DNA of 64,000 nt, from assembly GCA_039915165.1 (NCBI GenBank), contig JBDSNU010000007.1:16658-80657 (forward strand), given 5' to 3'. Both the position numbers and the translations under genes were made by a program. Source of the stretch: Minisyncoccota bacterium (GTDB lineage Bacteria; Patescibacteriota; Minisyncoccia; Phycocordibacterales; UBA9973). Under the pieces are notes generated by a model. That model searched no databases. It saw only the letters and a program-made list of their open reading frames with translations, and was not told the origin of the DNA. Positions 19,045 to 50,631 of the stretch are shown here, one piece after another (position 1 is the first letter of the stretch; each line of letters opens with the position of its first letter).

Positions 19045-19161
19045 ACAAGGCCTCGTATTATAGATACGAGGCCTTTTTCAATATTTCACCTAGTTTGGGA
19101 GCTTTGACAAGATTACATTTTGTGGGGTATTTGATACAATTCAAAAAAAACAAAAGAAAAT

Positions 19162-20322
19162 ATGGGACAAACAAAAAGAGGAGGTATGTTGTACACTCAG
19201 TGTCTCATACCTATTAACAACGTTATTGTATTTCCACAAGTCCGCAAGACATTTGATCAAGAACTGATTACAGAACTTGCCGATGACATTGCTACAAATG
19301 GAATTATTTACCCTCCGGTTTTTGCAAAATTATCAGAGGAAAAATTCAAAGCCTACAAAACAGCATTTGAATTAATTTCAGGCAAACAGCTCAACGAAAT
19401 ACACTTTCCCACACACAAGGGATATTACTACTGCCTTATTGCGGGTGAACGAAGATTTCGTGCACACAAACAACTCTGGGAACACGGTTGTACTGAATGT
19501 AACGCTGTTGCAAAAATTGCCTTGAAAGAATTAAAACCGGGCCAGTGCTACCACTCTCATTACGGGGATAGCCATATTGAGGGTAGGGCATGCCTTAACA
19601 TTGATCCACTGTCAGCCAAATCAATTCAGTTCCGAGAAAATAATCACGTTAAGCCGCCATTTCATGAAGAAGCGGATGAATACGATCATTTTTTCAGATA
19701 TATGCAATTAGGTAACCCTAAATTGAATTTAACTGAGTTTGCAAAAATTGTTGGCGTATCAAAAGAAAAGGTTCGCCGTGCTTTATGGTTCAGAGAACTA
19801 CCTGAATCAGTACAAGATGCAGCGCGACAAGGCTACATCTCTTATTCTAATGCAATTGAATTGCGAAGAATCAATGACCTACCCGCAAGCTTGATTACAG
19901 AAGAAAAGAGGGCAGACCTGTTACTTGAACAAGCCAGTTACTTGTTATTGCATCCACGGATCAAAAACGATGAATATCGCAAACGATTACGTGAGCGCTT
20001 AGCCAATCTGAACAACAACACTCTTTTTGACGTGACACCTTTTATTATTAAAGAAAAAGGTAAGCGAAAAATTGTTGAAGAGCATTTAATTCCTCACTTA
20101 ATGCTCCTTGCTAAATACATTAAAAAAGTTGGTGAACTACAAAAAACCGGCAGTATCGGTAAAGAGCAGATTTTTGCTGGTGGCTCTCCGACAAATCAAT
20201 TAAAAGTGATTACGGAGGAACTACAAACAATCATTCCAGGATTTGAATTAAGTATGGAACAATTAAAGGCAATCGGCCTACTTAATCTTGAAAACAAATC
20301 CAAAACACGTGAAGCTGGTTAA
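19162..20322 (+). CDS. ParB/Srx-family protein (N-terminal ParB nuclease-like domain + HTH) with Cys/His-rich insertion; orphan (no ParA)
   Basis: Box I (FPQVRKTFDQELITELADDIATNGIIYPPV) and box II (LIAGERRFRA). ParB-type HTH (LTEFAKIVGVSKEKVRRALWFRELPESVQDAARQGYISYSNAIEL). An insert of about 70 aa carries C-x2-C, C, H-x-H and C residues. Confidence 0.7.
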   Translation: MGQTKRGGMLYTQCLIPINNVIVFPQVRKTFDQELITELADDIATNGIIYPPVFAKLSEEKFKAYKTAFELISGKQLNEIHFPTHKGYYYCLIAGERRFRAHKQLWEHGCTECNAVAKIALKELKPGQCYHSHYGDSHIEGRACLNIDPLSAKSIQFRENNHVKPPFHEEADEYDHFFRYMQLGNPKLNLTEFAKIVGVSKEKVRRALWFRELPESVQDAARQGYISYSNAIELRRINDLPASLITEEKRADLLLEQASYLLLHPRIKNDEYRKRLRERLANLNNNTLFDVTPFIIKEKGKRKIVEEHLIPHLMLLAKYIKKVGELQKTGSIGKEQIFAGGSPTNQLKVITEELQTIIPGFELSMEQLKAIGLLNLENKSKTREAG

Positions 20323-20334
20323 AACCAGTCGCAC

Positions 20335-20377
20335 AAAAAGCCATAACAAATTAATTTGTTATGGCTTTTATTTTTTA
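20335..20377. terminator. bidirectional terminator (AAGCCATAACAAA/TTTGTTATGGCTT)
   Basis: 13-bp perfect stem flanked by A- and T-runs. Confidence 0.65.
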
Positions 20378-20390
20378 CAGAAACAATTTA

Positions 20391-20750
20391 CTACACCAGA
20401 TAGGGGATGTACTCTTTGTATTCTTCTTTAAACATTTTCAGAACTGTTTGTGCATGCGCGGCATCCATACCTTCATATGCATCTACTTCCTTTATTACCA
20501 GAGTATATGCACGCTTAGTAGCATTCACTCCAATAGAGCCAGCATCACTGTTAAGCGTTGCTTCCATTGGGGCAAAGTGCGGATGAGGTTTGCGCATAGC
20601 CTGATCTGTATCAATTTGTGAAATTGCAGCTTCAAGTTTTGTTACAAGCTGGCTGTTTTGATTGACCAGAAGCCATTCGCTTTCCTTAAACCATGTTGGT
20701 AAATGAGCCCAGCGCGCCGGCGCTTTTGGCATACTTTGAGTTGTCTCCAT
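20391..20750 (-). CDS. hypothetical protein (119 aa)
   Basis: ORF only. Confidence 0.35.
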   Translation of the reverse strand: METTQSMPKAPARWAHLPTWFKESEWLLVNQNSQLVTKLEAAISQIDTDQAMRKPHPHFAPMEATLNSDAGSIGVNATKRAYTLVIKEVDAYEGMDAAHAQTVLKMFKEEYKEYIPYLV

Positions 20751-34863: not shown

Positions 34864-35856
34864 TTATTTTCTGTCTAAAATTTTCATTACTGCAGCTATA
34901 ATGGCATCTTGACCCATGTCGTATTTTTCTACGAGTTCATTTGGTGTGCCAGACTGGCCAAAGCGATCTTGTACGCCAATGAATTCCATGGGTACTGGCA
35001 TTGTTTGCATCAGTACTTCAGCGATCGCACTACCGAGACCTCCTGCAACCTGATGCTCTTCAACAGAAACGATGGCTTTAGTTTCTTTTGCTAATTGTAA
35101 AAGTAATCCTGTATCAATTGGCTTAATAGTATGAATATTTGCAACAAGTACCTTCACTCCTTTTTTTTCTAAATCTTTTGCAGCACGTAATGCATGAACA
35201 ACAAGCGCACCTGTGGCAATCACTGCAACTTGAGCAAGCCCTTCTGGACGATATAAAATCTGTCCTTTGCCAATTTCAAAAGGAGTGTCTTCGGTAGTAA
35301 TAACAGGAGTTTTCTCGCGTGCTAAACGCAAGTACGCAATGCGAGGATTGGCAGAGAGCGCCAATGTGGCTTTCTTGGCTTGGATAGCATCACAAGGAGA
35401 AATAACGGTCATGCGAGGCAATACACGCATCAATGCAATGTCTTCAATGGCTTGGTGTGTACCCCCGTCTGGCCCAACAGAAACACCAGCATGACTACCT
35501 ACAACAACGGCGGGGCGATCGTTGTAACAAATAGTAGTACGAATCTGTTCCCAGTTTCTACCTGGACTAAACATTGCATATGAAGAAAAGAATGGGTACT
35601 TACCCATTGCCGCTAAACCACTCGCAGTTGCCGCAAGGTTTTGTTCGGCAACACCAATTTCAACAAAGCGTTCTGGGAATTTCCCTTTGAACAAATGCAT
35701 TTGTGTTGACTCTGTTAGATCAGCAGAAAGAGCCACAATAGTTTTATTTAGTTCACCTGCCTTCAATAAGCCCTCACCAAATCCTTTGCGAATAGGAATT
35801 TGTTCTACATCATCTGCAAAGACACTAGTATTAAGTTTTAAATCAGGATTAAGCAT
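34864..35856 (-). CDS. transketolase, C-terminal (pyrimidine-binding) subunit
   Basis: Transket_pyr and C-terminal domains (EQNLAATASGLA...GPDGGTHQAIEDIA). 330 aa. Confidence 0.85.
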   Translation of the reverse strand: MLNPDLKLNTSVFADDVEQIPIRKGFGEGLLKAGELNKTIVALSADLTESTQMHLFKGKFPERFVEIGVAEQNLAATASGLAAMGKYPFFSSYAMFSPGRNWEQIRTTICYNDRPAVVVGSHAGVSVGPDGGTHQAIEDIALMRVLPRMTVISPCDAIQAKKATLALSANPRIAYLRLAREKTPVITTEDTPFEIGKGQILYRPEGLAQVAVIATGALVVHALRAAKDLEKKGVKVLVANIHTIKPIDTGLLLQLAKETKAIVSVEEHQVAGGLGSAIAEVLMQTMPVPMEFIGVQDRFGQSGTPNELVEKYDMGQDAIIAAVMKILDRK

Positions 35857-36187
35857 TATTATTGTTATTCATATATTCGTTTCTGCTCACAAAATTATCG
35901 TGTATCTGTATAAGATCTTTTTTAGTAGCCATATTCGCAATATCTTCTTTTGTAGCAAACCTTTTTAGATCCTCCTTTGTTGCCATTGTGCTTTCAATGC
36001 GATCAAATCGCTCATCGATTGCAGTAAAAACTGGTGCTAATTTTTCTGCAAATTTATCAAATGCTGCATCTACAATTTCCGTCACAGCCTCCTTTAAATA
36101 CGCTTTCGTAACATATTCATTACCTTCTTCGACTGTGTTGGTATTGTTTTTCATAGATTTAGTATACTTGGTATTTATATAAGACAC
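35849..36187 (-). CDS. hypothetical repeat protein (112 aa) inserted between the transketolase subunit genes
   Basis: Three tandem 9-aa units: ATKEDLKRF, ATKEDIANM, ATKKDLIQI. Helical, with an Asn-rich tail. Overlaps the tkt-C start by 8 nt. Confidence 0.4.
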   Translation of the reverse strand: MSYINTKYTKSMKNNTNTVEEGNEYVTKAYLKEAVTEIVDAAFDKFAEKLAPVFTAIDERFDRIESTMATKEDLKRFATKEDIANMATKKDLIQIHDNFVSRNEYMNNNNNA

Positions 36188-36228
36188 TACCAGTATTTTG
36201 TTAATAACACCTTATTTTTCTTTAGGTT

Positions 36229-37095
36229 TTATTTATGCTCACTTTTTATCTTACCTCCCAATGTGCGCAATTCATCCAATGCAATTGTCGCTTCTTCTTT
36301 GTTTGGTGTCTTGCCATGCCATTCGAATTTGCGTTCGAATTCTTTTACCCCTTTTCCAGGAATTGTGCGAGCAATGATGACTGAAGGTTTTTCAAAAACT
36401 GCCTTTGCTTGATGTACTGCATCGATAATTGCTTGCATGTTATTACCGTCGATTTCTTGCACATGCCAATTGAAACTTTCCCATTTTTTATTTAATGAAT
36501 CCAACGGCATGATGTCTTCTGTATAGCCATCAATCTGAATATTGTTACGATCAACTATGGCGATAAGGTTATGAAGTTTTTCTTTGCCAGCAAGCATCAT
36601 AGCTTCCCAGTTGTTTCCTTCATTGAGTTCACCATCACCGAGTAAGCAATAAATACTGCGTGCTGTAGCAATACCATTATCCATACGGTCAGCTAGCGCC
36701 ATGCCAACTGCTTGTGACAATCCACTCCCTAGTGGCCCTGAACTGTTTTCAAGGTATGGCAAAAATTCACGATGCGGATGTCCTTGCAAACGTGAACCGT
36801 ATTTACGAAGTGTGAGCAGTTCTTCTACAGGGAAATAACCACTGTGTGCCATAGTGGCATAGAGCACCGGACAAATATGTCCATTAGAAAGTACGAGACG
36901 ATCGCGATCTGGCCAAGCAGGATTTTCTGGATCATGACGAAGCAGATCAAAATATAATGCGGTGAATACATCTGCCATGCCAAGCGGCCCAGCAGTGTGT
37001 CCACTTCCCGCCTCAAGCAACATTGAAATAATTGACTGACGAATTTCGTTAGCTTTGAGTGTTAGTTCTCTTGTTGTGAAATCGCGTTGTTGCAT
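36229..37095 (-). CDS. transketolase, N-terminal (TPP-binding) subunit
   Basis: GSGHTAGPLGMADVF TPP-binding motif and GDGELNEG. The start may instead be the Met at 37023, because this ORF overlaps rpe by 34 nt. Confidence 0.85.
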   Translation of the reverse strand: MQQRDFTTRELTLKANEIRQSIISMLLEAGSGHTAGPLGMADVFTALYFDLLRHDPENPAWPDRDRLVLSNGHICPVLYATMAHSGYFPVEELLTLRKYGSRLQGHPHREFLPYLENSSGPLGSGLSQAVGMALADRMDNGIATARSIYCLLGDGELNEGNNWEAMMLAGKEKLHNLIAIVDRNNIQIDGYTEDIMPLDSLNKKWESFNWHVQEIDGNNMQAIIDAVHQAKAVFEKPSVIIARTIPGKGVKEFERKFEWHGKTPNKEEATIALDELRTLGGKIKSEHK

Positions 37096-48562: not shown

Positions 48563-48634
48563 GGCCCTATCGTCTAACGGTTAGGACGAATCCTTCTCAA
48601 GGATTAAATCGGGGTTCGATTCCCCGTGGGGTCA
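48563..48634 (+). tRNA. tRNA-Glu (anticodon CTC)
   Basis: Cloverleaf: acceptor GGCCCTA/TGGGGTC with two G-U pairs, anticodon stem AATCC/GGATT, loop TTCTCAA, T-arm CGGGG-TTCGATT-CCCCG. No encoded CCA. Confidence 0.8.
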
Positions 48635-50117
48635 CTTTAGGGAATTTTGACTCGTCAATTAGCAGTTTTAGCTTGAAAACACTGCATATTTTCGGTGTTC
48701 GTAAATTTACCCCATCGAAGACTATACCTTTAGGAAAGTCGAACTCTTGGAACTTTCGCCTTATTTCTAAAGAGCTTTTTTCCCAGAACAAGTGAGGGGC
48801 CTGCAATACCTGAGCCGAATATTTTATAAGATCATTGATGTTGATATTCTCATTAACCGCTGCTTTTGAAACCTCCCGTAATTCCTCATTTTCTGATTCA
48901 AGGCGCTTAACCCGTAGCTCAAAACTATTTTCACTGATACTCCCCTTTCCGTGTAAGTCGATTAGTACATCTATTTGTTGGTTGATTTCATCTATTCGTT
49001 TGTGTATTGCCGCACTCACATGGGCGTCGTTGACCGTCCGCTTGCCAAAGTGCTTTTCTAAATATTCTTTTAATGCGTTTAAATGCGAAGTATCAAAGGC
49101 AAATTGCGACAAGAATGCTATAAATTTCTGCTCCAATAGTTCCTTTCTGATGGTTGTTCCAGGCAAATGAAAGGAATAATAGGGATACTTTTTGGTTTTT
49201 CCTTTCGACCAGTAGCCAGTAAGTTGCTTTCCGTCCTCGTTAAGAACGAAACGTCTCAAAGGGAAATCGGGATTTTCTTTTAAGTACTGTTTAATGACAT
49301 TCTTTCGTCCCTTCAATGCTGCTTGAACATCGTCAAATAGTGGTTCAGGAATAAACGTTTCAAAGGTTGCATTAACGACTAACCCGAAATTTTTAATGAT
49401 TCCTTTATATAATGGGTTTCGCAGCAGTCTAAAAAAATATCCCCTGCTAACAGCACCTCCTGCATTGTTGGTCAAACCTTTTTCTTTCATCATTAACCTA
49501 ATGACCTCCGAAGAGTATCTCCGTTGGGAAATCAATTCAAATGCTTCCCGTACCAAAGGTGCCATCTCATTTGGCGCAATGTTGGCCTTATTCCCTATTT
49601 TGACATTGCTGTATCCCAGTGGCGCTTTCCACACGTATCGGCCTTCTTGCACAGCTTCTCGCATCCCTCCGACACTCCGCTCAGTTCGCACTTCATTATC
49701 AAACTGACTAACATTGGCGATAATATTTTCCATGAAGCGACCCGCAGGGGTGTCCTCAAAATGTTCAGATACTGACTTGATTTCTATATTATATCTTTTA
49801 AGCTTAACTTTTATATAACTATAATCAGCGATGTTGCGGCTAATGCGGTCAATCTTGTACGCGATGACTGCATTGACTGCTTCTTTTCTATCACCACAAT
49901 ATGCAAGCATACGCTGTAATTCCTTTCGATCTGCCGTTTTTGCGCTTTCACCCTTCTCAATAAAAATTTCTGCTATTTCGAGTCCCTGATTAAGGGCGTA
50001 TTCGCGGCAAAGCCGCTCTTGCGTTACAAGGCTGTTTCCTTCGTCCACTTGTTCTTTTGTAGATACTCTGCAATAAATAACGGCGCGCTTAGAGTTATTT
50101 ATTATTTCGCTTTTCAT
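48597..50117 (-). CDS. large serine recombinase (integrase)
   Basis: Resolvase-type catalytic domain with a nucleophile Ser (AVIYCRVSTKEQ) and conserved R/D residues, then a recombinase domain and a coiled coil (LRVKRLESENEELRE). The last 12 codons are the reverse complement of the tRNA-Glu 3' end. Confidence 0.85.
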   Translation of the reverse strand: MKSEIINNSKRAVIYCRVSTKEQVDEGNSLVTQERLCREYALNQGLEIAEIFIEKGESAKTADRKELQRMLAYCGDRKEAVNAVIAYKIDRISRNIADYSYIKVKLKRYNIEIKSVSEHFEDTPAGRFMENIIANVSQFDNEVRTERSVGGMREAVQEGRYVWKAPLGYSNVKIGNKANIAPNEMAPLVREAFELISQRRYSSEVIRLMMKEKGLTNNAGGAVSRGYFFRLLRNPLYKGIIKNFGLVVNATFETFIPEPLFDDVQAALKGRKNVIKQYLKENPDFPLRRFVLNEDGKQLTGYWSKGKTKKYPYYSFHLPGTTIRKELLEQKFIAFLSQFAFDTSHLNALKEYLEKHFGKRTVNDAHVSAAIHKRIDEINQQIDVLIDLHGKGSISENSFELRVKRLESENEELREVSKAAVNENININDLIKYSAQVLQAPHLFWEKSSLEIRRKFQEFDFPKGIVFDGVNLRTPKICSVFKLKLLIDESKFPKVTPRGIEPRFNP

Positions 50118-50631
50118 AAAAATATGCCTCAACCAAGATTTCGGCCAACTGATCCAATAATATTTCTATAGGTGGTTCCTGCCCCGTTAAACCCAAAGCA
50201 GAGCCACGCATAACGTCATTGTTGCTACACAATAAACCACGTGGCTCTGCTTTAGGTACGTTATCGTATAAGTTCTTAGAGGAACCATACAAATCAATAA
50301 AACGACTGTTGCTGTATTCTTTTAAAACAATCAAATTATTGCAAAAAAAAGGTTTCTGTTTAGTGTTCCACGTATCAACAATTTGATTAAAATCAGTATT
50401 GTCCTTTATCGATACTGGTGTTTTACTCCTGTCATGTGAAGTCCGCGTACTAAGCAAATTACCTTCTCTAATAAAGGTCCTTACACGATATCTTTTTAAT
50501 TTATTGAGATTTTGCGCTTCACCCAAATTACCCGGATCCACTATTATCTTAATACATACATGAAAATCCTTCCCTGTAACTTCATTAAACGCCGTATTCA
50601 ATGTATTGCAAAAGGCGTTAGGTACAATCAA
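50095..50631 (-). CDS. hypothetical protein (178 aa), upstream of and overlapping the integrase start
   Basis: ORF only. Likely co-transcribed with the integrase. Confidence 0.35.
   Translation of the reverse strand: MIVPNAFCNTLNTAFNEVTGKDFHVCIKIIVDPGNLGEAQNLNKLKRYRVRTFIREGNLLSTRTSHDRSKTPVSIKDNTDFNQIVDTWNTKQKPFFCNNLIVLKEYSNSRFIDLYGSSKNLYDNVPKAEPRGLLCSNNDVMRGSALGLTGQEPPIEILLDQLAEILVEAYFYEKRNNK

Follow-up and report, generated by a model that had tools for sequence, protein, structure and literature searches.

We analysed a 64-kb stretch of a Minisyncoccota bacterium genome (64,000 nucleotides of contig JBDSNU010000007.1, hereafter the window) and focused on an open reading frame (ORF) in it that encodes a ParB-like protein (Table 1). 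The sequence inspected comprises the window and 9 kb past its left end, out of a contig of at least 192 kb. The product is identical to the NCBI hypothetical protein ABIO57_02610, from a Candidatus Paceibacterota metagenome-assembled genome (MAG), and, judged by its sequence, it is a divergent protein of the ParB/Spo0J/Noc type without a ParA partner. The next gene upstream, which has the same orientation, encodes a DUF7178-like protein; the two genes are separated by a terminator-like hairpin and a conserved promoter-region element, and another hairpin, shared with a convergent gene, follows the ORF. A preliminary description of the locus had set its end at 20377 because of this last hairpin. 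The start of the protein is uncertain by eight codons, since the homologue P0002 begins at the position of Met9, the second in-frame ATG (19186), while other homologues keep the K/R-rich residues upstream of it. An AGGAGG sequence resembling a Shine-Dalgarno site lies within the first codons (19162-19188), just 5' of this second ATG.

Table 1. Features of the ParB-like locus in the window and their counterparts in loci of other lineages (positions preceded by an L-number belong to the locus so labelled).
Feature	Position	Strand	Evidence or remark
DUF7178-like gene, 396 aa	17854..19044	+	Pfam DUF7178, E 2e-9, C-terminal part only
DUF7178-like orthologues	L001 8761-9903; L014 2252-3439; L016 8693-9901; L018 1477-2652; L019 1070-2245		
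Terminator-like hairpin GGCCTCGTAT-TATAG-ATACGAGGCC + T5	19049..19078	+	GC-rich 10-bp stem, found by reading the sequence
Promoter-region element TTGACAAGAT, ~22 nt, then extended -10 TGaTACAAT (19132-19140)	19104..19140	+	
Promoter-region element, all loci	window 19104-19140; L001 9946-9982; L010 523-560; L014 3505-3542; L016 9938-9975; L019 2290-2327		
ParB-like ORF, 386 aa + stop	19162..20322	+	ORF call, homology, structure model (mean pLDDT 85.8)
Box I / C-motif, PQVRKTF...IYPPVFAK, aa 25-56	19234..19329	+	Pfam ParB_N; aligns to Spo0J 18-48
Insertion A (helix + loop between Box I and Box II), aa 57-89	19330..19428	+	Absent from canonical ParB
Box II / P-motif, GERRFRA, aa 95-101	19444..19464	+	Alignment
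Insertion B, putative metal-binding module, ~30 aa (about aa 104-137)	19471..19572	+	Between Box II and Box III
Codons of candidate ligands C110, C113, C129, H133	19489-19491; 19498-19500; 19546-19548; 19558-19560	+	
Box III remnant, QFRENNHVKP, aa 156-165	19627..19656	+	Q156, E159, N160 conserved
ParB-type helix-turn-helix DNA-binding domain, aa 187-239	19720..19878	+	HTH_ParB E 7.5e-4; Spo0J/Noc alignment; fold matches
All-helical C-terminal region, aa 240-386	19879..20319	+	Conserved loop G-x-IGKGK-x-YSG-x-SP
Intrinsic-terminator-like hairpin, 15-bp stem + T-run	20336..20369	+	Shared with convergent gene 20391..20750 (-)

The Pfam ParB_N model (PF02195) matches residues 26-62 (E 1.4e-7, above the gathering cutoff of 26.3 bits), and the sequences of the B. 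subtilis Spo0J and Noc structures align with the protein in three collinear blocks (residues 26-56, 90-103 and 168-232). Both ParB boxes named in the preliminary description are indeed present, with PQVRKTF in Box I and GERRFRA at residues 95-101. An AlphaFold2 (AF2) model built from 25 sequences has a mean predicted local distance difference test score (pLDDT) of 85.8, with residues 10-280 mostly above 90, and when it was compared with the PDB using Foldseek, the top matches were clamps dependent on cytidine triphosphate (CTP), Noc (7nfu) being first (E 7e-10), with ParB bound to cytidine diphosphate (6sdk), M. xanthus ParB bound to CTPγS (7bnr), KorB (8qa8/8qa9) and C. crescentus ParB among the further matches. 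The N-terminal ~20 residues are variable across the family and disordered in the model. The NCBIfam models gave sub-threshold partial matches only, namely, 36.6 bits for Noc (TIGR04285, cutoff 315), covering only the N-terminal 46 residues, and 30.4 bits for parB_part (TIGR00180, curated cutoff 58.45).

Residue conservation was counted over 156 aligned sequences, i.e., the window protein and 155 relatives. In Box I, 149 of them have Q26 and 150 have R28; in Box II, the corresponding counts are 154 for G95, 142 for E96, 145 for R97, 155 for R98 and 140 for R100; and in Box III, they are 154 for Q156, 146 for E159 and 156 for N160. H162 of Box III is kept in 121 sequences, and position 163 is variable. 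The residues of the nucleotide pocket are thus kept under selection across 156 diverse sequences. As to the helix-turn-helix (HTH), which the preliminary description had called canonical, its assignment to the ParB type is supported by the alignment with Spo0J and Noc and by fold matches of residues 187-239 to the DNA-binding domains of Noc, KorB and ParB; however, the Pfam HTH_ParB model (PF17762) scores only 20.1 bits in the window protein (E 7.5e-4), under its cutoff of 22.6, while 16 of 60 family members match it at E<=6e-6.

Since the three collinear blocks are separated by two insertions of ~30 residues each, the Cys/His segment of the protein is located within the nucleotide-binding domain. 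The preliminary description had taken this segment as an insertion of about 70 residues between the N-terminal domain and the HTH. The segment is real and conserved, but both its length and its place have to be revised, as residues 104-167 take in a normal beta-strand and Box III with Q156, E159 and N160. The other insertion (A, residues 57-89) had been overlooked. Its stretch has 33 residues in the window protein versus 4 in Spo0J, the family median from residue 57 to Box II is 43 residues, ~30 longer than in Spo0J, and it is found throughout the family alignment; in the model, it contains a helix at residues 59-73 with pLDDT >88.

Insertion B carries the pattern C110-x2-C113...C129-x3-H133, and the 12 closest sequences all have these four residues. 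In the alignment of 156, the ligand set is CCCH in 121 and CHCH in 5 (together 126), and of the remaining 30, ~25 have a shortened insert and no ligands. The C-x2-C pair that had been pointed out earlier is part of the candidate site, the conserved ligands being C110, C113, C129 and H133; conservation is lacking at H131, H138 and C144. In the AF2 model, the CxxC pair caps a helix at residues 111-119 and the Cx3H pair lies within a helix at residues 128-134, both with pLDDT >=95, and this predicted placement is compatible with a tetrahedral metal site. When we built a neighbour-joining tree with the insert region left out, the ligand-less members were scattered in many small groups, suggesting that the metal site is ancestral and dispensable and has been lost repeatedly, and thus that its role is structural rather than catalytic. 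The metal would most probably be Zn2+ in a structural role, with C110, C113, C129 and H133 as its ligands. The insert is also a common feature of one lineage, a possibility that the preliminary description had raised: 126 of the 156 sequences share it, and every named member belongs to the Candidate Phyla Radiation (CPR).

Beyond the HTH, the protein ends in a helical region of ~147 residues, and a C-terminal region of ~157 residues is found throughout the family alignment. The canonical ParB dimerisation domain (PF23552) was not detected in the window protein or in family members, while it is present in all canonical matches listed. What had been described previously as a 150-residue C-terminal extension is better regarded as a different domain (~147 residues) that replaces the absent PF23552. 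Presumably, this region supplies dimerisation.

A word-indexed search returned 12 clusters only, and an exhaustive profile search of 1.84 billion representatives returned 260 of them at E<=1e-30, nearly all full-length matches (~360-450 aa), so that the family has at least 260 sequence clusters. Members score at least 352 bits against the family profile versus at most 75 bits for the best canonical ParBs, and this large gap indicates that the family is a discrete clade. The named members come from Paceibacterota, Nomurabacteria, Uhrbacteria, Berkelbacteria, Woykebacteria and the 'Patescibacteria group', all belonging to the CPR/Patescibacteria, and their annotation is 'hypothetical' or an automatic 'ParB/Spo0J HTH domain-containing'. 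One match among the species representatives lies on a 936-kb contig that is nominally from Gammaproteobacteria. Only 17 of 60 family members roughly reach the PF02195 cutoff, with ~70% being below the Pfam threshold. A metagenome scan was dominated by canonical ParBs and added only two family loci. Two Saccharibacteria MAG loci from a genome scan (L022 and L025) have ParB-like genes ~26% identical to the query and no ParA-type Walker A motif upstream, while nearly all other canonical ParB loci in the same scan do have one. These two loci suggest that there are further orphan ParBs among CPR lineages.

As the preliminary description had stated, there is no ParA/Soj gene next to the ORF, and in fact no ParA-type deviant Walker A motif occurs anywhere in the 64-kb window. 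The same holds for the family in general. Such a motif was found upstream of the gene at 0 of 20 family loci versus 56 of 89 (63%) other ParB loci that were fetched as by-catch, and it was found nowhere else within the family loci either. Moreover, the ParA-activating motif (L/F/I)G(K/R)G(L/F/I) is present in 0 of the 156 family members versus 22 of 24 canonical ParBs from the same search. The reported lack of dnaA, gidB and rnpA is also confirmed, as none of them is found among the annotated ORFs or in the 9 kb beyond the left end; neither DnaA, GidB, RnpA or ParA nor an ORF of the size of SMC was seen in the whole of the inspected sequence.

The gene is embedded in housekeeping DNA. The window contains xseA/xseB-like, L27 and L9 genes (identified by eye from their translations), together with genes for a release factor, L25, an aldolase, a split transketolase, GAPDH, GatB, Obg and RmuC and a dcw cluster, and genes for ATP synthase and glycolysis are located just past its left end. 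In other lineages, the orthologue adjoins trxB-ftsZ-ftsA (L001 and L004), lies ~6 kb from trxB-ftsZ (L010), or adjoins dnaX-dnaB, dnaB-ybaB-recR or rnhA/comEC. In every lineage examined, the neighbourhood is chromosomal housekeeping DNA, and not a defence island or a phage. PADLOC returned a noise-level match only, and no defence genes were seen near the family loci; no DNA-modification genes were found among the neighbours, no family member or DUF7178-like relative among the IMG/VR viral contigs, only generic ParB among the BFVD fold matches, and nothing relevant in a TRF scan for tandem repeats. The role in defence, anti-defence or DNA modification that the preliminary description had considered is therefore not borne out by the PADLOC result, the housekeeping neighbours and the absence of viral relatives.

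The regulatory signals around the gene are partly conserved. T-run hairpins occur in L001, L014, L018 and L019 in the position equivalent to that of the hairpin at 19049-19078, which an automated terminator scan did not report, possibly since its stem can extend into the T-run. Since this terminator-like hairpin and the conserved promoter lie between the DUF7178-like and ParB-like genes, the two are separate transcription units. The gene had been credited with its own TTGACA promoter and terminator; TTGACA is found at 19104-19109 and the terminator hairpin at 20336-20369, but the former lies 25 nt from the best -10 element, which is not the canonical sigma-70 spacing. The pattern TTGRCA-N25/26-TAYAAT occurs exactly once per locus, directly 5' of the orthologue, in six independent lineages, and only once in the whole 64-kb window, indicating a gene-specific conserved element rather than a general promoter layout. 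The conserved core, TTTGRCAAkAT, is non-palindromic and stands 25-26 nt upstream of the TAYAAT -10 box. As this spacing is wrong for a sigma-70 -35 box, the core may be an operator or an UP-like element. We also considered TTTGRCAAKAT as a dispersed binding site and rejected it, as the window is not enriched for it (10 matches versus 10.1 expected).

The computations above establish the homology of the protein, the conservation of its residues, the size and taxonomic range of the family, the lack of both the ParA motif and a ParA gene, and the genomic context. From these, we infer nucleotide binding, clamp behaviour, the identity of the metal, the DNA target, dimerisation and a cellular role, which together outline a ParA-independent, nucleotide-gated DNA clamp of the ParB type with a structural metal module and a novel C-terminal region, serving chromosome organisation or regulation in CPR bacteria. 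We regard this reading as reasonably probable. According to it, a homodimer would bind a specific DNA site through the ParB-type HTH, and a nucleoside triphosphate (NTP), most likely CTP, would sit in a pocket formed by Q26/R28, G95-E-R-R-x-R100 and E159/N160. The nucleotide-bound dimer would then close as a clamp that entraps DNA and would reopen on hydrolysis, like ParB, Noc and KorB. It would function without ParA, as the N-terminal ParA-activating motif is missing and no parA gene adjoins its own. The ~30-residue insertion past the GERRxR helix would fold round one metal ion and add two short helices to the surface, and is probably a stabilising or partner-docking module rather than a catalytic site. 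The cellular role is likely to be chromosome organisation or long-range gene regulation, and not plasmid partition, nuclease activity or defence.

Several observations weigh against this reading. The 156 aligned sequences do not conserve the Arg that ends the ENLQR of canonical Box III. According to a published survey (PMC12704722), the nucleotide specificity of the ParB fold is unpredictable from sequence or AlphaFold3, and of 28 ParB-fold proteins that were purified, 17 showed no NTP binding in vitro; given the unpredictable specificity and the non-conserved Arg, CTP is an assumption. Three Cys and one His could also hold an Fe-S cluster instead of Zn2+, and the C-terminal part of the AF2 model, where dimerisation is placed, is only moderately confident. 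With regard to the DNA target, the preliminary description had proposed to look for parS-like sites in the genome, and none was found in the sequences covered here: neither the window nor 12 family loci contain canonical parS (TGTTNCACGTGAAACA) within 2 mismatches, while it was recovered in two control loci, and the one 3-mismatch match in the window compares with 0.54 expected by chance. Nor did palindromes sought de novo yield a binding site, as none recurs in the window and none is common to lineages, the shared ones being confined to the near-identical L004 and L017.

The DUF7178-like protein encoded upstream also matches phrog_3842, which has no assigned function (E 3.9e-9). Of the 12 lineages whose upstream side is visible, 7 have a homologue of it directly upstream of the ParB-like gene and in the same orientation, across proteins that are only 30-53% identical; the other 5 have none within 10 kb, and one of these is L004, where synteny is otherwise identical. 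Members share an invariant block, N-[AG]-RKIKNF..AM..A[IV]PVD[IM]W[IL]xRAF, plus W364-x-G-I-R, which resembles the helix-hairpin-helix (HhH) and catalytic Asp of endonuclease III (EndoIII), a resemblance that is statistically unsupported. When aligned by hhalign, the block falls exactly on the HhH and catalytic Asp of E. coli EndoIII, but the match is not significant (E 0.41, probability 0.14%). The Pfam HhH-GPD model (PF00730) matches 1 of 8 DUF7178-like members, and weakly (E 0.16), and an AF2 model based on four sequences has a pLDDT of 42.6. No EndoIII homologues were found in the 1 Mb of DNA that was searched for a better HhH-GPD profile, and the protein has no match to the Nop domain. 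A match to a PDB profile of interferon-gamma was rejected as a compositional artefact.

Canonical ParB/Spo0J is a CTP-dependent sliding clamp that is loaded at parS. The window family shares with it (PDB 6sdk, 7bnr and 6t1f) the ParB/Srx fold and the order of Box I, GERRxR, the E-N of Box III and the HTH, but it differs in lacking the LG(R/K)GL motif, a parA neighbour, PF23552 and any parS that we could find, in having the two insertions in the N-domain, one of them with the CCCH site, and, for the window protein, in scoring below the TIGR00180 cutoff. Noc (PDB 7nfu, 7ng0 and 7ol9) is likewise an orphan ParB-derived CTP clamp without ParA, and is the top structural and partial NCBIfam match; however, its model is reached at a small part of the cutoff score, the C-terminus is another one, no conserved N-terminal membrane-targeting helix was seen in the window family, and Noc has no metal-binding insert. 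KorB is a CTP-dependent clamp that acts together with KorA as a long-range transcriptional repressor. KorB of RK2 (PDB 8qa8 and 8qa9) is, like the window family, a clamp with the ParB fold and an HTH that is independent of ParA-type partitioning, and is a good fold match; but it is plasmid-borne and comes with KorA, whereas the family is chromosomal, carries the metal insert, has no KorA-like neighbour and, on present evidence, is confined to the CPR. TasParB of the TIGR-Tas systems is tied to TasA and TIGR arrays in CPR bacteria and phages and has a DGFHR motif (Faure et al. 2025, PMC12045711). It is also a ParB-fold protein, partly from the CPR, encoded beside a partner gene and with predicted C-terminal dimerisation, but the window protein has AGERRFR in place of DGFHR, and neither a Nop-domain TasA nor a TIGR array accompanies it. 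DndB/DpdB-like proteins differ in their DGQHR-type motif and dnd/dpd linkage, whereas the window protein has GERRFR and no modification genes adjoin it.

Orphan ParBs as such are already known and widespread (Kaljevic et al. 2025, PNAS, PMC12704722), and the window family falls under their definition, i.e., a ParB-CTPase fold that is encoded outside parAB and lacks the ParA-activating motif. The surveyed orphans are frequently linked to mobile elements (PMC12704722), whereas the window family is found in housekeeping DNA. The main text of that survey is silent on CPR/Patescibacteria, on an insertion in the fold and on a metal site, and its criterion for ParB is TIGR00180 at the gathering cutoff (PMC12704722). 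Since the window protein is below the TIGR00180 cutoff and only 17 of 60 members roughly reach that of PF02195, most of the clade is invisible to such surveys.

How the protein might serve the cell can also be explained differently. It might simply be a diverged canonical chromosomal ParB, with parA and parS elsewhere in the genome. The gene is chromosomal and lies in housekeeping DNA, and only 64 kb plus 9 kb of the contig were inspected; moreover, according to Dataset S1 of the above survey (PMC12704722), a chromosomal ParB detectable by TIGR00180 is found in only 26 of 135 Paceibacterales species (~19%), versus 89-100% in most other CPR orders, so a diverged form could fill the role. Nevertheless, we consider this improbable, since the ParA-binding motif is missing from all 156 members, no family locus has an adjoining ParA while 63% of the controls do, the canonical C-terminal domain is absent, no parS was found in the window or in family loci, and both the sub-cutoff TIGR00180 score and the very large gap in family-profile scores set the protein apart from canonical ParBs. 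With no parS found in the window or in family loci, and with the ParA-binding motif and the canonical C-terminal domain missing, the view of a plain chromosomal ParB with parS sites clustered around it, which the preliminary description had entertained, does not hold in that form. The survey counts can also be read in another way: as most CPR orders except Paceibacterales have a canonical ParB, the family would there be a second ParB-like protein, which leads to a specialised paralogue like Noc or KorB that coexists with canonical ParB, either as a membrane-tethering CTP clamp in division control or as a long-range silencer. Noc is the best fold match and the best partial NCBIfam match, with KorB being close, the orthologue lies beside or near ftsZ in three lineages (L001, L004 and L010), and the conserved non-palindromic element in the promoter region hints at regulation. 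Against such a role stand the very low score of the Noc model, the variable N-terminus, in which no amphipathic membrane helix was identified, although no dedicated analysis of amphipathicity was made, the missing ftsZ linkage in the window and several other lineages, and the lack of a visible KorA-like partner. We give it little credence in this specific form, while it overlaps with the ParA-independent clamp favoured here and differs from it only in cellular role.

Two other explanations involve the neighbouring gene or a different activity. The ParB-like and DUF7178-like proteins might form a two-gene module in which, for example, the clamp recruits or positions an HhH-type enzyme that processes DNA in repair, modification or surveillance. 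The association in 7 of 12 lineages despite 30-53% identity, the hhalign placement on the EndoIII HhH and catalytic Asp, and the weak HhH-GPD match of one member speak for it; but 5 of 12 lineages, L004 among them, have no such gene within 10 kb, the hairpin and promoter split the two genes, the likeness to HhH-GPD is not significant, the model of the DUF7178-like protein is unusable, and the pair has no matches in the defence library. On balance, we think such a module unlikely. As for a ParB-fold nuclease, or a ParB associated with defence or guide RNA like TasParB or DndB/DpdB, it may be noted that TIGR-TasA operons with a parB-like gene are known in CPR bacteria (PMC12045711) and that orphan ParBs are often tied to mobile elements (PMC12704722). 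However, TasParB and DndB have DGFHR or DGQHR at the catalytic position, where the window protein has GERRFR; no TIGR-like array (short repeats with a period of 30-50) was found in the window or in the family loci by a detector that did recover a synthetic array; the upstream protein has no Nop match; PADLOC gave noise only; and there are no relatives on viral contigs. The GERRFR motif, the lack of arrays and the neighbour without a Nop domain led us to reject an identity with TIGR-Tas/TasParB, and we consider this whole class of explanations very improbable. The nuclease activity suggested in the preliminary description likewise finds no support, as the protein has the full nucleotide-binding set and an HTH as in the clamp-type ParBs, with GERRFR and not DGQHR or DGFHR.

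The ParA-independent clamp could also be extended to a bolder scheme, in which the CCCH site is a regulatory metal or redox switch (Zn-thiolate or Fe-S) in the nucleotide gate of the clamp, the family is the main chromosome organiser of Paceibacteria, and in one subclade the DUF7178 protein is an HhH-type DNA enzyme recruited by the clamp. We find this scheme improbable as a whole. If it were true, closure of the clamp on the chromosomes of ultra-small symbionts without ParA would answer to the metal or redox state.

To our knowledge, chromosome organisation and segregation in CPR bacteria are essentially unknown. It is only recently that the CTP switches of the ParB type have been recognised as a class of molecular switches, and how far their fold has diversified is an active question. 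While the category of orphan ParB is known, this variant of it stands out by a conserved metal site within the CTPase domain, by its occurrence in the CPR and by being mostly missed by standard ParB models. According to the literature we searched, this would be the first conserved metal-binding module inserted in the nucleotide-binding domain of a ParB; searches on zinc-ribbon CTP-binding ParB and on ParB CTPase in the CPR returned nothing relevant. The family adds a chromosomal clade of orphan ParBs in a housekeeping context, with named members across several CPR lineages, and serves as a warning that surveys based on domain models undercount ParB-fold proteins. In addition, it offers a compact protein with which the gating of a CTP clamp by accessory modules could be tested.

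Some further features of the window are worth recording. Gene orientation and GC skew both switch at ~20.35 kb. To the left of this point, most genes are on the + strand, whereas to the right nearly all are on the - strand over more than 20 kb; the cumulative GC skew is highest at 14-20 kb and declines steadily from there, and the ParB-like gene is the last one on the + strand. This switch represents either a convergent, terminus-like pattern or a plain operon boundary, and is not consistent in other lineages. A large serine recombinase with Resolvase and Recombinase domains (48597..50132, -) abuts and overlaps a tRNA-Glu(ctc) gene (48563..48635, +), and small ORFs without assigned function follow as far as position ~51.7 kb of the window, which may mark the boundary of an integrated element. 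Finally, the transketolase is encoded by two ORFs, one for the N-terminal part that binds thiamine pyrophosphate (36229..37095) and the other for the pyrimidine-binding and C-terminal part (34864..35856), and an ORF of 112 codons lies between them (within 34864-37095).

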